Assembly (NCBI RefSeq): GCF_006345805.1
Contig: NC_042999.1
Location: forward strand, 85,374,001-85,438,000
Length of the DNA: 64,000 nucleotides
Direction of reading: 5' to 3'
From: Octopus sinensis
Lineage: Eukaryota
The position numbers were made by a program, and so were the translations under genes. Under the pieces are notes generated by a model that was not told the origin of the DNA, did not search any database, and saw nothing but the letters and a program-made list of their open reading frames with translations. Positions 3,283 through 7,377 of this stretch are shown in pieces. The first letter of the stretch is position 1. Each line of letters begins with the position of its first letter.

Positions 3283-3333
3283 AGCTTCCTGAAGATTTCT
3301 CTTGACTGAAACAGTTCTAGTCCTGTAGAAGCT
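3283..3333 (+). ncRNA. Degenerate type-I hammerhead ribozyme motif
   Basis: agcttc-CTGAAGA-tttctcttgact-GAAA-cag..ctg-TA-gaagct. Stems I and III pair and the core is present, but stem II does not pair. AATAAA follows downstream. Confidence 0.5.
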
Positions 3334-3416
3334 CCTTCTATATAATAAATTAATTTTACTCTGCTATGTATTGAGTACCTTATTTACTGTGGTTAACCCC
3401 GAATCAACCCGGGACC

Positions 3417-3494
<78 letters not shown>

Positions 3495-3496
<2 letters not shown>

Positions 3497-3606
3497 CGGC
3501 CTGCTCGCTAGCCAGCGGGATGGCGTCATTCGAAGGCTAAAACAATGCGAACGCATTGTGACCAGCGATGTGTAACTACATCTGATGGTCTGGTCGGTCA
3601 CGTGAT

Positions 3607-3613
<7 letters not shown>
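3495..3613 (+). mobile_element. 3' fragment of tRNA-derived SINE (same family as 11255-11540)
   Basis: Reverse-complement similarity to 11255-11375, ending in tcacgtgatcacgtga. Confidence 0.7.
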
Positions 3614-3664
<51 letters not shown>

Positions 3665-4144
3665 AATATATATATATATATATAATGATGTGTGTTGTGT
3701 ATTCTTTTTTTCTTCATTTGTATTGCTTTACGTCCTGTTTTTTTGTCACTTGTTTTACCCCTCTGCAAAAGAATTTAATTTAATTCCTTTTGCAAGAAGG
3801 ACTGCTTCGACTGTGTTCTGTCCTTACCTTCGAAACACACTTTGAGTCGAACCAGGGACAGCTGATGAAGGGGAATATTCCTTGTATTGTTTGTCCTGTA
3901 CTCTGTTTTTTCGTTGTTCAAAAAAAGGCCGTTTCCTTGTTTGATTTTATGTTCTCTGCTCTCGTTGTGTTCTACGTTTATTTGTAGTGTCCTGTACTCA
4001 TATATATATATATATATGCATGTATATATACATGTAGATGTAAGTATGTACATATATGTATGTATATATGCATATATTTTATTTATTTATTATATTACTA
4101 TATGACCGAACGCACGCGTTATATTCTCTTCTCCAAGTTTTATA

Positions 4145-4200
<56 letters not shown>

Positions 4201-4555
4201 TATATGAGTTAGAGGTTAAGCACCATCTAAGGGATAATAAATATCCAATATGCTACTGGATGCATACCTACGTATTTTTATATGCAAAGCAATATCGCAA
4301 TTGAATAATAGGTATGAGTGGGGGTAAAAAAGATTTTTACCTAGAATTCATAAGGCGAATAAGAAAATGGAGAGAATAATCAATCAACAAACATCAGCCT
4401 GTAAACATTAATTTGGATCTATTTATTAATTAATTACAATCATATGTATAAGTAGTCAAAATAAACAAATAAAATAAACATATAAACAATAAATAGATAA
4501 ATAAAAATAAATAAATAAATAAATAAATAAGAATAAATGAGTGAAAAAAAATACT

Positions 4556-4706
4556 AAATCCTTACAGCTGTTTCTAATATGGGGTTGTCCAATTTGCCGA
4601 GTTTTCCACATCATACCAGTAATATGCAGGATTTGTACAAAGGTTGAACAAACATTGGACAGAGGCTGGACAATAATTGAACCCCAAAGCTTCATCAGAG
4701 AGACTA
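4556..4706 (-). ncRNA. Degenerate minimal hammerhead motif with long stem-II insertion
   Basis: Minus strand CTGATGA-agctttggggtt...aaccccatatta-GAAA-cagctg-TA-aggat. Stem III is the palindrome ACAGCTGT; base of stem II mismatched. Confidence 0.5.
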
Positions 4707-4943
4707 TAATGTTAGGAATCTAACATGTGAGGAAGTAAGGTAAAATAATAAAATAAAATAACATAATAAAAAATAGAAAAAAATAGTAAAAAATAAAAAA
4801 TAGTAAAAGAAATAGTTACTATTTTTCGACTCTTATTTCTAGCAAAGCTGGTTCTTCGTGTACCCTCAGTTATAATTATTATAAATTTATGAGTTGGCCT
4901 TTTTTGGATTTATTGCTTTTGGCCACTTATATTATTGTTGTTG

Positions 4944-4983
<40 letters not shown>

Positions 4984-5023
4984 TATTATTATTATGATTA
5001 TTATTATATTATTATATTAGTAT

Positions 5024-5058
<35 letters not shown>

Positions 5059-5059
5059 T

Positions 5060-5540
5060 AATTGTTTTGTCTTGGTATAAAATGGGGCTACAGCAAATAT
5101 TCTGCCTCAATACCACAGATTTGCTTGTCAGTTGTTTGACCTTAACCAGTTGAGCATGTCCCTTCGTGGCTGACAATATGTGCATCTCTGATCACGAGCA
5201 AAGTGTGGGGGAGCATCATAGCCATGTGTTGAGAGGGATTCTTTGGGGTTTGAATAGTTCACCTCTGGAAACATGGGTGGTTCTTTCAACATCCTTAAAC
5301 AACCCTTATTCAGGGACCGTTTGAGCGGGATGGGCTACTCATCTGAAGAAAATTCTAACTGGGCCCCACCTGCAAGGTCATGTGCTGTTTATCTTGATAT
5401 GAGATCACCATGTCGCGCACATATGGTTGTGATGCATGTGCCTGGTGTACCTTTATCAGACGGGTAGTCATGATGGGTATATTGGGCTTCGTATATTTTA
5501 CCCCAGTGTCACTTTGATGGCATGCACTGCTCTCTCACTC

Positions 5541-5541
<1 letters not shown>
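5060..5541. repeat. ~480-bp interspersed repeat, second copy inverted at ~21810-22295
   Basis: Extensive reverse-complement similarity between the copies (e.g. gagatcaccatgtcgcgcacatatggttg vs caaccatatgtgcgcgacatagtgatctc); (AAT)n flanks. Confidence 0.8.
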
Positions 5542-5576
<35 letters not shown>

Positions 5577-5758
5577 CTTTTATTCTTTTATTTGTTTTAG
5601 TCATTTGACTGCTGTCATGCTGGAGCACCACCTTTAGTCGAGCAAATCGACCCCAGGATTTATTCTTTGTAAGCCTAGTACTTATTCTATTGGTCTCTTT
5701 GCCGAACTGCAATGTTATGGGGATGTAAACACACAAGCATCGATTGACATCGATTGAC

Positions 5759-5794
<36 letters not shown>

Positions 5795-5859
5795 TTTGTG
5801 AGTCTGTGTTTTCCCCAACATCACTTGTCAATCGATGCTTGTGTGTTTACGTCCCCATA

Positions 5860-5896
<37 letters not shown>

Positions 5897-5924
5897 ACAC
5901 ACACACACACACATATATATATAT

Positions 5925-6016
<92 letters not shown>

Positions 6017-6225
6017 TATATATATTATATATAATATATATTGAAGTAGATAAGTGAATTATCTTATTACGGTAATTCAAATGATAACTGATACCTGGGT
6101 AGCAAAAATCACAACAGAAAAACACGGTATAAAATCCGTGCCTTAGTGCGGAAATTTGAAGTTTTATATATTAAGTGTAGGAAGAAACGGAGCTGAACGA
6201 AGATTTAACAAAATTCCTTTTTATT

Positions 6226-6311
6226 ATTTTCTACATATGTTTCGAAGGCTGCAAAGTCCCTAATTCGGATTGAATAAGGAGTCCATTTTGCAGTCTTCTC
6301 TTCAGGAAAAT
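6226..6311 (-). ncRNA. Minimal type-I hammerhead ribozyme, apparently intact
   Basis: Minus strand attttc-CTGAAGA-gaagactgcaaa-(loop)-tttgcagccttc-GAAA-catatg-TA-gaaaat. Stem I 6 bp, stem II 11/12 paired, palindromic stem III ACATATGT, GUA cleavage triplet. Confidence 0.85.
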
Positions 6312-6394
6312 CCAGAACTTAATTCTCCCACAAATGCACAGCAAGCTTTTCGACAAACGCTCACGAGGATCCCATATATATATATCTATGTATA

Positions 6395-6438
<44 letters not shown>

Positions 6439-6593
6439 ATATATACATATATATATATATGTGTGTGTGTGGTGTGTTATATATATATTATATGTATATA
6501 TATATATATATAGTATATATATATATATATATTATATATATATAATATATATGTATATATATATATGTATATATATATGTATATATATATAAT

Positions 6594-6637
<44 letters not shown>

Positions 6638-6667
6638 GCGAGAAAGAAGCAACAAGAATGGATAAGT

Positions 6668-6758
6668 TTTTAGTACAATCGTTTCATACAAAGACAGGCT
6701 TTATTAAAAGTTGCAAAAATTGCAGCATATAAACGTGTCCCGTACTCATCAGCTAAAA
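6668..6758 (-). ncRNA. Minimal type-I hammerhead motif (left-arm copy)
   Basis: Reverse-complement copy of the motif at 7145-7234. Confidence 0.7.
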
Positions 6759-7144
6759 TACATGTGAGTTCTCTAGACATCTTAGTGGTTGAGGCTATAC
6801 TCATGAAGTAATGTAGATAATTAAGTAACATAAACAGATTTCCAAAGTTCATTAAAGTTCTTTAAAGATGCACAGTCTTATCACAGATTTTTAAAAAAGT
6901 TTTAATAGCATCACAGAGAAGGTGACTTATCCATAGTGTACATATGAATTTCCAGAGATATGTACACTATGGATTAAGTCACCTTCTCTGTGATGCTATT
7001 AAAACTTTTTTAAAATCTGTGATAAGACTGTGCATCTGTAAAGAACTTTAATGAACTTTGGAAATCTGTTTATGTTACTTAATTATCTACATTACTTCAT
7101 GAGTATAGCCTCAACCACTAAGATGTCTAGAGAACTCACATGTA

Positions 7145-7234
7145 TTTTAGCTGATGAGTACGGGACACGTTTATATGCTGCAATTTTTGCAACTTTTAAT
7201 AAGCCTGTCTTTGTATGAAACGATTGTACTAAAA
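7145..7234 (+). ncRNA. Minimal type-I hammerhead motif (right-arm copy)
   Basis: ttttag-CTGATGA-gtacgggaca...tgtctttgtat-GAAA-cgattg-TA-ctaaaa. Stem I 6 bp, stem II with G-U pairs, near-palindromic stem III ACGATTGT. Confidence 0.7.
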
Positions 7235-7377
7235 CTTATCCATCTTGTTGCTTCTTTCTCGCTTATAATCACCCCACATTACTGTATGGTTAAAACCGTA
7301 TAGTTTTTTGGTGCATCTAAGTTAGATACCATATTCAAGTAAATTCATTAAAATTGACTTGAATCTTTATTGCTTTT

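Follow-up and report, generated by a model that had tools for sequence, protein, structure and literature searches.

A probable pile-up of Penelope-like element ends in Octopus sinensis and a rewired hammerhead motif predicted to self-cleave

What brings several dissimilar hammerhead sequences, each set in (TA)n microsatellite, together within a few kilobases of an octopus genome? The window considered here is a 64,000-nucleotide stretch of the Octopus sinensis genome (contig NC_042999.1, positions 85,374,001 to 85,438,000). Near its start an initial annotation had listed four short islands, F1 to F4, and read them as non-coding, ribozyme-bearing retroposons. All four are real and all contain the claimed hammerhead block order, but the list lacked a fifth hammerhead-bearing island, F5 (Table 1). 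The reading that we favor, with a probability of about three in four, is that the stretch is a pile-up of Penelope-like element (PLE) ends at (TA)n. Four would be of Hydra type with type I hammerhead ribozymes (HHRs), while the fifth would be non-coding, likely mobilized by Naiad PLEs, and equipped with a rewired HHR predicted to self-cleave. The retroposon proposal fails for F1-F4, to which ORFs are linked, and fits the unlisted, non-coding F5. The analysis demonstrated the copy numbers, the linkage to ORFs, the partial copies in inverted orientation, the junctions with TA, the order of the blocks and the covariation of base pairs, as laid out below.

Table 1. Element ends and hammerhead features, in window coordinates
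Feature	Position	Strand	Remarks
F1, Hydra-type PLE, 5'-truncated	1..3419	+	inverted truncated copy precedes; ends at (TA)n
F1 HHR, type I	3283-3333	+	stem I of 6 bp; stem II short, U.U at its base; stem III of 16 nt, near-palindromic; cut predicted after A3327
F5, 3' part of non-coding repeat	3686..4139	+	ends at (TA)n; 3677 first-look candidates
F5 split-core, non-circularly permuted hammerhead	3758..3873	+	pattern, descriptor, alignment
Split motif, helix Px	3758-3762/3869-3873	+
Split motif, Py hairpin	3763-3771/3787-3795	+
Split motif, stem II	3796-3800/3827-3831	+
Split motif, stem III	3812-3816/3835-3839	+	predicted cut after T3817
Split motif, stem I	3818-3825/3854-3861	+
Split motif, core blocks	GAAA 3832-3835; CUGAUGA 3862-3868	+
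F2, older Hydra-type PLE 3' end	4197..4790	-	80-89% to other copies
F2 HHR, type I, decayed	4560-4702	-	stem-II arm ~110-120 nt; palindrome ACAGCTGT
F3, Hydra-type PLE 3' end	6041..6372	-
F3 HHR, type I	6226-6311	-	stem-II arm 55 nt; palindrome ACATATGT
F4, inverted, shorter copy	6637..6945	-	without 3' tail
F4 second HHR, in inverted copy	6668-6758	-	strict descriptor match
F4, Hydra-type PLE 3' end	6952..7379	+	ends at (TA)n
F4 HHR, type I	7145-7234	+	stem-II arm 59 nt; palindrome ACGATTGT

The most unusual of these features belongs to F5. Tandem copies of this repeat are spaced 767 nt apart (a unit of ~770 nt), with relatives at 826-838 nt; an 896-nt repeat at one locus (L192), considered as the element unit, proved to be a local duplication with flanks. 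The F5 motif contains all hammerhead core blocks in the non-circular order cleavage site, GAAA, CUGAUGA. An upstream strand completes stem II, and two extra helices, Px and Py, lie between A9 and G10.1, giving a four-way junction. Assignment to a decayed type I or to a type II HHR was dropped, as the position that each requires holds no GAAA block or stem I, and a plain type SGC was dropped as well, the partner strand of stem II lying upstream. No published precedent was found for the layout. The Py pair at the junction is open in the window copy, owing to a G>A change at 3795; assembled sequencing contigs aligned to F5 have a G there, and they show no accumulation of ends, a signal that such contigs could not reveal in any case.

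The split motif is abundant and its helices are well maintained. Two tight patterns, written for the F5 group and for a second sequence group, matched the genome 3,114 and 6,116 times, against 6 and 0 matches in the control, and stems I and III both reached at least 4 bp in 17 of the 23 first pattern matches examined. A split descriptor gave 70 matches in 260 loci and was satisfied by 9 of 11 F5 loci, while 4 of 3000 control sequences, in which the two core blocks were fixed and the remainder shuffled, passed. When 30 copies were aligned with MAFFT, 94.1% of cells were paired (35-51% in slid controls) and 12 of 27 pairs showed double changes, a count as high as which arose in 0 of 500 shuffles. 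The alignment of 20 copies from the second group was 94.6% paired with double changes in 5 of 28 pairs, which is not above shuffles (190 of 500). Stem II shows no double change within either genomic alignment, its differences lying solely between groups.

Which machinery mobilizes such a repeat? Naiad PLEs have been reported without canonical HHRs, with only unexplained 'HHR_core' and 'HHR_half_core' notes (Craig et al. 2021, PMC8557442). The split motif occurs downstream of the Naiad reverse transcriptase (RT) in 4 of 6 loci of the Octopus sinensis genome and in the published 3' ends of Naiad_Ovul and Naiad_Obim. Linkage to Naiad RT is also seen for a sister group that has the F5 motif. F5 shares with Naiad PLEs the split motif, which lies in the 3' UTR of Naiad_Ovul, Naiad_Obim and metagenomic Naiads, as well as insertion at (TA)n and tandem plus inverted copies, but is itself without an ORF. 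None was found in 20 F5 loci of 10 kb, the Naiad type (N-terminal GIY-YIG, CxC, DKA, RT) included, so the dependence of F5 on Naiads is argued from their shared architecture.

The motif also extends beyond octopus. Marine metagenomic Naiad loci were recovered by a HMMER library search; when a decayed fragment of a Naiad RT was used in a word-indexed search, no match was returned, and viral contigs gave none either. Twelve of 74 such loci pass the five-helix split descriptor, against 0 in controls, and the four-way junction is perfect in 6 of these 12 examples. The loci are divergent, their best pairwise protein segments being at most 63% identical. Among 67 metagenomic Naiad tails, 10 contain the split form and 2 the CSG form (0 in reverse-complement and reversed controls), none a canonical HHR, and 55 no HHR of any block order. 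L356 and L366 have the unsplit CSG form, which inspection by eye also places in nematode Naiad consensi, and a twister-P5-like motif occupies this 3' region in other Naiads. A search of 52 Naiad tails without an HHR for one-mismatch core variants gave a single unconvincing match. Rfam reported no hammerhead in the window or, at the gathering threshold, in 20 Naiad loci, its models not covering these layouts, and Pfam gave only a sub-threshold RVT_1 match to a Naiad fragment. We consider it rather probable that Naiads use non-circularly permuted HHRs across animal phyla, the split four-way-junction form self-cleaving as a monomer and sharing one 3' UTR region, interchangeably, with CSG HHRs and P5 twisters, and that non-coding, retrozyme-like parasites have spread more than 9,000 copies of it in this genome.

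The closest relatives in layout are the validated non-circular types SGC and CSG, found only in metatranscriptomes and metagenomes, with cleavage demonstrated for type CSG (Eckert et al. 2023, PMC10085705). The F5 motif shares with type SGC the order site-GAAA-CUGAnGA, the full core and stems I to III, and with both types a short linker that joins stem I to stem II. Unlike type SGC, it has a broken block C, with an upstream stem II strand and two helices between A9 and G10.1; unlike either type, the split motif is present in thousands of copies within an animal genome. The F5 motif would resemble type SGC in its working and is not classed as a member. According to Eckert et al., CUGAnGA is separated from its stems by at most 1-2 nt in every known HHR (PMC10085705), and the split core may therefore be unable to reach an active fold.

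The alternative that survives best, although we judge it unlikely, is that the split motif is a conserved hammerhead descendant that is no longer catalytic, its role being to bind the Naiad RT/endonuclease protein or to act as its priming site. In an anole PLE, insertion in vitro did not need HHR cleavage and no RNA-seq ends fell at the HHR cut site (PMC11167929); we found no precedent in the hammerhead literature for a break between A9 and G10.1, and the motif is missing from many Naiads. A mere protein-binding site, however, fits poorly with the conservation of CUGAnGA, GAAA, the A-U pair and the U-H cut site across families that share no stem sequence, or with the presence of CSG, a cleaving type, and of the twister-like motif in the same 3' region of sister Naiads.

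Appreciably less credible is a motif whose activity is confined to a different fold or to action in trans, for instance with stem II formed by the strand after CUGAnGA, as in plain SGC, or by strand exchange between two RNAs, Px and Py representing an inactive or regulatory state. A G-run after the F5 core could weakly pair with the strand before GAAA, and single-strand folding of the F5 motif recovers Px, Py and stem I and misses stems II and III, because these are pseudoknots outside the folding model. Against this, a direct stem II would reach 0-3 bp in the 10 split metagenomic loci, compared with 5-6 bp with the upstream partner, and the nucleotide that follows A9 changes in concert with the upstream strand of Px (U-A 21, G-C 3 in the 30-copy alignment).

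Under the preferred reading, in which the split motif is a self-cleaving hammerhead, the F5 RNA would run from the 5' strand of Px through the Py hairpin, the 5' strand of stem II (from G10.1), the 3' strand of stem III, the cut site and the 3' strand of stem I. It would continue through a linker of 1-4 nt, the 3' strand of stem II, GAAA, the 5' strands of stems III and I, CUGAnGA and the 3' strand of Px. The opening in the chain would fall between A9 and G10.1 and be closed by Px and Py; these two helices would stack on each other and, together with stem II and the core, make up the four-way junction. The short linker would tie stem I to stem II. Given a stable stem III, the motif would cleave as a monomer and trim tandem or read-through transcripts to unit length. 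F5 and its relatives recall the non-LTR retrozymes, non-coding type I HHR units of 170-400 nt proposed to be PLE-dependent (Cervera and de la Pena 2020, PMC7229834; Li et al. 2026, preprint 10.64898/2026.07.22.740005), as they too are non-coding, HHR-bearing units with head-to-tail copies. The F5-like units differ in being ~690-840 nt long and in that the F5 HHR is not type I (its order is site-GAAA-CUGAUGA), and F5 copies are mostly dispersed, truncated monomers.

The four hammerheads flagged at the outset are more conventional. A strict HHR descriptor matched F3 and both F4 copies (3 matches, compared with none in 300 dinucleotide-shuffled versions of the islands) and did not match F1 or F2. 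In the F1 HHR two U residues face each other at 10.1:11.1, a feature common among published Hydra HHRs (PMC8557442), and an A>C change in stem II is private to the window copy (1 of 25 copies); the F2 window copy is older and decayed. The core and stems I and III of F1 are intact in 18 of 19 other copies, and the HHR is intact in 17 of 19 for F3 and 19 of 19 for F4. A looser pattern matches 11 of 19 other F2 copies, 6 of them with the exact GAAA-palindrome-cut site. The three stem-III palindromes quoted in the initial annotation read as stated in the window sequence, and ACGATTGT self-pairs solely via G.U. Computed stem-III homoduplexes (-5.8 to -12.8 kcal/mol) and heteroduplexes (0 to -5.0 kcal/mol) make its suggestion that the palindromes could restrict dimer formation to the same family thermodynamically plausible.

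As elements, F1-F4 are the 5'-truncated 3' ends of multicopy PLEs that match the Hydra clade. Far from being single-copy, they gave 1824 (F1), 364 (F2), 2453 (F3) and 1958 (F4) first-look candidates. F1, taken as a ~340-nt island, really starts outside the window, ~510 nt upstream of position 1 and within the final codons of its ORF. Its 3' UTR is ~3.9 kb long and mostly (TG/TA)n, and the tract of TG/TA at 353-3077, 73% of it in T[AG] runs, belongs to this UTR. F4 is a 600-nt inverted repeat. The (TA)n association held up, with TA following the 3' end in 18 of 20 copies of F1, 4 of 7 of F2, 17 of 20 of F3 and 19 of 22 of F4, compared with 313 of 5000 at random.

The suspected PLE link was likewise borne out by ORFs joined to the UTR of each family in other copies. 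A single ORF with an RT and, at its C terminus, a GIY-YIG endonuclease adjoins the HHR-bearing 3' end of F1 (L144, L145), F3 (L081, L083, L084) and F4 (L089, L090), and L144 is a full pLTR-ORF-pLTR unit, the F1 unit spacing being 5837 nt. For F2 the traces are a decayed endonuclease C-terminus directly upstream in L045 and an inverted RT in L099, and nothing further. The possibility that F1-F4 are independent non-coding retrozyme families generating the surrounding (TA)n, to which the near absence of coding sequence from the window copies and the kilobases of TG/TA repeat carried and spread by F1 might point, is highly improbable given these ORFs and given that most second matches next to the best copies are partial and inverted and do not form short head-to-tail arrays.

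The placement of F1-F4 with the Hydra clade is a match of motifs. Hydra-clade PLEs, their HHRs, their (TA)n preference and one Octopus family, Hydra-1_Obim, have been published; such elements are typically <3 kb, with an N-terminal RWK motif and DKT replacing DKG (Craig et al. 2021, PMC8557442). The Hydra-type ORFs contain RW[RL], DKT, YRDD, Y[IV]G, CxxC and CxH, with RWR and DKT in F1 and RWL and DKT in F3 (the two families whose N-termini were recovered), and CxxC and CxH around the conserved endonuclease E/N in the regions recovered from F1, F3 and F4. F1-F4 all combine a type I HHR in the pLTR with insertion at (TA)n, as Hydra-clade PLEs do. Also in common with the clade are the C-terminal GIY-YIG and, in the regions recovered, the RW-x, DKT, CxxC and CxH motifs, as well as the palindromic stem III and inverted 5'-truncated copies. 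A CxCx5C linker precedes the endonuclease in F1 and F4 and persists as a decayed CxC in F2; it is absent from F3 (L007) and from its intact 899-aa relative L147, and F3 is therefore termed Hydra-type rather than a full Hydra-clade member, yet its 3' end still lies at (TA)n. A Pfam search of these ORFs matched no RT or GIY-YIG family, and a homolog search gave 802 relatives of ~700 aa and no clade name.

Several traits set the families apart from published Hydra elements, namely stem-II arms that span 55-120 nt in F2-F4, a length of ~5.8 kb with a ~3.9-kb microsatellite 3' UTR in F1, and F3/F4-type ORFs of 899-992 aa (roughly 900-990) with Asn-rich inserts. F1-, F3- and F4-type elements exceed the <3 kb norm, which is a published tendency and not a strict criterion, and the published HHR of Hydra-1_Obim is unlike those of F1-F4. 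F1-F4 look like undescribed Hydra-type families of an already known kind. For such elements, the GIY-YIG endonuclease would nick (TA)n, reverse transcription would begin near the RNA 3' end, and truncation would leave only 3' ends. Each insertion would add TA-rich target, kilobases of it in the case of F1, so insertions would come to lie within one another. Cleavage of the minimal type I HHRs would take place in dimers formed through the palindromic stem III, mostly within one family.

The four hammerheads flagged first are of lesser import, as new Hydra-type families; side points are family-specific stem-III palindromes as a possible self-recognition code and, in F3, TA targeting without the zinc-finger linker. 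If cleavage of the split motif is true, it would be a new wiring of the best-studied ribozyme, at odds with the stated assumption that stem II adjoins CUGAnGA, and the free helix between A9 and G10.1 would offer a new place to attach aptamers. Surveys of ribozymes in animal genomes would be overlooking a large class, and non-circular RNA permutations would exist as thousands of copies in animal genomes, not just on rare environmental contigs. The puzzle raised by Craig et al., of Naiads that thrive without HHRs, would then be explained by layouts invisible to descriptors.

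Among the four hammerhead islands (F1-F4) flagged in the initial annotation lies a fifth (F5), a repeat with 3677 candidates, within the microsatellite-rich initial 8 kb of the window (C3:85374001-85438000 of a 2.72 Gb genome). Its ends fall at TA in 16 of 27 cases, copies stand head to tail at a spacing of 767 nt (826-838 nt in relatives), and no ORF was found nearby in 20 loci of 10 kb each. The F5 hammerhead places the cut site first, then GAAA and then CUGAUGA, with a stem I of 8 bp and a stem III of 5 bp. This S-G-C order is that of type SGC in the accessible part of Eckert et al. 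2023 (PMC10085705). Unlike in type SGC, however, the strand preceding GAAA pairs upstream of the entire motif, from the G equivalent to G10.1, and the strand following CUGAUGA pairs still further upstream, forming an extra helix (Px). A second one, the hairpin Py, separates Px from stem II and leaves no spacer. Because the partners of stem II and Px are upstream with Py between them, A9 and G10.1 come to lie at opposite ends of the chain, and in the modelled fold a four-way junction would hold these two residues of the split core. Such a split form would be expected to cleave as a monomer. The window copy carries a G>A change within Py and may be impaired by it.

Positions of features in the window
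Feature	Position	Strand	Remark
F1	1-3419	+	
Sixth repeat	138-352		inside TA tract of F1 3' UTR
TG/TA microsatellite	353-3077		
Short repeat between TA tracts	3497-3612		12 matches in loci fetched
F5	3686-4139	+	
Split hammerhead of F5	3758-3873	+	
G>A in Py	3795		
F2	4197-4790	-	
480-nt repeat between (AAT)n tracts	5062-5540		14 matches in loci fetched
F3	6041-6372	-	
Inverted copy of F4	6637-6945	-	
F4	6952-7379	+	
Possible sulfotransferase first exon	~7890-8100	-	weak PDB match (E 0.62); GT donor at end
Decayed split-hammerhead copy	~10165-10310		by eye
Decayed split-hammerhead copy	~10860-11010		by eye

A pattern of the G and C blocks has 3,114 matches in the genome (control 6); stems I and III are present in 17 of the first 23 examined, the remainder being truncated or decayed. 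A five-helix descriptor yielded 70 matches among 260 loci, including two unsought families (L081, L092); of 3000 controls in which everything but the two core blocks had been shuffled, 4 pass. The L092 group has 6,116 matches in the genome (control 0) and forms tandems of ~690 nt. One alignment (A1) comprises 30 sequences, the window copy and 29 of 46 extracted, with truncated, near-duplicate, unrelated or other-group sequences omitted. Paired cells amount to 94.1%, and double changes occur in 12 of 27 pairs (Px, Py, III, I), equalled in 0 of 500 shuffles; the shuffles ignore relatedness, so the figures for neither alignment are p-values. The other (A2) comprises 20 copies, 18 of 30 L092-group loci (12, mostly 5'-truncated, were omitted) plus two earlier copies; it is 94.6% paired, with double changes in 5 of 28 pairs, a count no higher than in shuffles. 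Stem II has no double changes within A1 or A2 but does differ between groups.

The split motif is also found at the 3' ends of the published Naiad_Ovul and Naiad_Obim, members of a clade of Penelope-like elements (PLEs), and 417 exact pattern matches in the genome have the motif common to the Naiad_Ovul consensus 3' end. In the O. sinensis genome the motif lies 1.2-2.6 kb 3' of four of the six Naiad reverse transcriptase (RT) remnants, in the same orientation, and F5 would presumably depend on Naiads. By eye, in the portion of the PMC8557442 supplement consulted, the split form is present in Acropora Naiad consensi and in others that are cnidarian or crustacean by file position, and an unsplit CSG form in Nippostrongylus consensi and adjacent records. 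A putative spider Naiad (by file position, by eye, same portion) has a third layout, with the site block first, a Px strand between site and GAAA blocks, and stem II as a local hairpin.

An independent test drew on a collection of Naiad-like proteins and on 80 metagenomic loci, the best of 295. The tails of the 67 loci with at least 300 nt 3' of the ORF comprise 10 with the split form, 2 with CSG and 55 with no hammerhead; canonical types I-III occur in 0 of 67, and reverse-complement and reversed controls gave 0. The five-helix descriptor, which demanded G at 10.1, is passed by 12 of 74 loci (controls 0), with a perfect junction in 6 of the 12. CUGAnGA of any kind occurs in 17 tails, 14 of which fit a non-circular hammerhead, and the best protein segments of these 14 Naiads are at most 63% identical. 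A twister-P5-like motif is common to 13 of the 80 loci (L343-L391), several near-identical (control 1), and L325:3076-3135 matches Twister-P5 under the gathering score (E 0.029). Naiads therefore appear to keep one of several predicted self-cleaving motifs, split or CSG hammerheads or twister-P5-like, in the 3' UTR. The twister-like motif occupies 3' UTRs where other Naiads have hammerheads. SECIS-like matches were seen at L380, L384 and L385.

F1-F4 had been read as non-coding, which does not hold: looking for linked RT and GIY-YIG endonuclease recovered such coding sequence beside copies of all four. For F1, an ORF lies immediately 3' of the pseudo-LTR (pLTR) in L070, and L144 is a complete pLTR-ORF-pLTR unit of 5837 nt. 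The F3 ORF begins after the pLTR in L081, with endonuclease upstream in L002 and L007; F4 has both domains at L089 and L090, and for F2 the L045 locus carries a decayed endonuclease on the upstream side and L099 an RT. The motifs in these ORFs (RW[RL], DKT, YRDD, Y[IV]G, CxxC, CxH), and a CxCx5C linker in F1 and F4, largely match the Hydra clade as defined in the accessible text of Craig et al. 2021 (PMC8557442). That text already reports hammerheads and (TA)n insertion for Hydra PLEs, including one Octopus family, whose hammerhead as given there is unlike those of F1-F4. Compared with published Hydra elements, F2-F4 have long stem-II arms, and F1 a 3' UTR of ~3.9 kb, mostly TG/TA repeat; F1-F4 look like new elements of a known kind.

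TA follows the 3' end in 18/20 copies of F1, 4/7 of F2, 17/20 of F3 and 19/22 of F4, against 313 of 5000 random positions. The reported link to TA microsatellite thus stands, but the tract treated as F1 flank is part of the element, since the F1 3' UTR is so long and TG/TA-rich. These elements would target such tracts; the (TA)n ends of F3 and its intact relative, both without CxCx5C, speak against a need for the linker in targeting. As is usual for PLEs, shorter inverted copies accompany F4 and, on its upstream side, F1. The existence of two alternative 3' ends agrees with the internal RT initiation that explains the PLE "tail" in the available part of PMC11167929. Recent activity is suggested by further Hydra-type families (L147-L159), which have intact ORFs (~727 aa, ~899 aa) and exist in many near-identical copies; in the 727-aa family the CxC linker is broken. 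ORFs of F3 and F4 type (L081, L083, L084, L156) carry long in-frame Asn-rich inserts from RT thumb to endonuclease.

All four type I hammerheads can be seen in the sequence as first described. A strict descriptor matched F3 and two F4 copies (0 in 300 shuffles), and stems had to be relaxed before F1 and F2 were recovered. All four islands are indeed repeats: when 40 candidates per island were scored, 42-57 matches resulted for each (first-look candidates: F1 1824, F2 364, F3 2453, F4 1958). An intact core with both stem I and stem III is retained by 18/19, 17/19 and 19/19 other best copies of F1, F3 and F4; F2 is older and keeps the exact GAAA-palindrome-cut site in 6/19. A census of type I hammerheads in the first 273 loci gave 36 stem-III/cut-site variants, the majority self-complementary. 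Predicted stem-III homoduplexes of F1-F4 (-5.8 to -12.8 kcal/mol) are more stable than heteroduplexes (0 to -5.0). Such hammerheads act as dimers according to the accessible part of Cervera and de la Pena 2014 (PMC4209133), and those of F1-F4 would be expected to cleave in this way.

The sixth repeat has 1384 first-look candidates, with tandem and inverted copies and ends close to TA; the portion in the window has no hammerhead. Immediately upstream of the window, L160:6562-7726 holds two further type I hammerheads of other families, one per strand, and because these adjoin the inverted F1 copy, the pile-up reaches past the window. If the sulfotransferase exon is real, the pile-up would sit within its intron. 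The first of the decayed split copies shows, by eye, a compensatory change in stem II.

Searches of the open literature turned up no paper that connects PLEs with non-circular hammerheads or reports a helix inserted between A9 and G10.1; such a motif could still stand in theses, in subscription papers or in the supplements of Eckert et al. The available sections of Craig et al. (PMC8557442) mention 'HHR_core' and 'HHR_half_core' sequences of Naiads that they neither explain nor fold, and the search of a 2026 retrozyme preprint (10.64898/2026.07.22.740005), by its accessible text, covered type I only. With F5 included, the locus exposes what is probably a new hammerhead topology, one with a wide distribution among Naiads.
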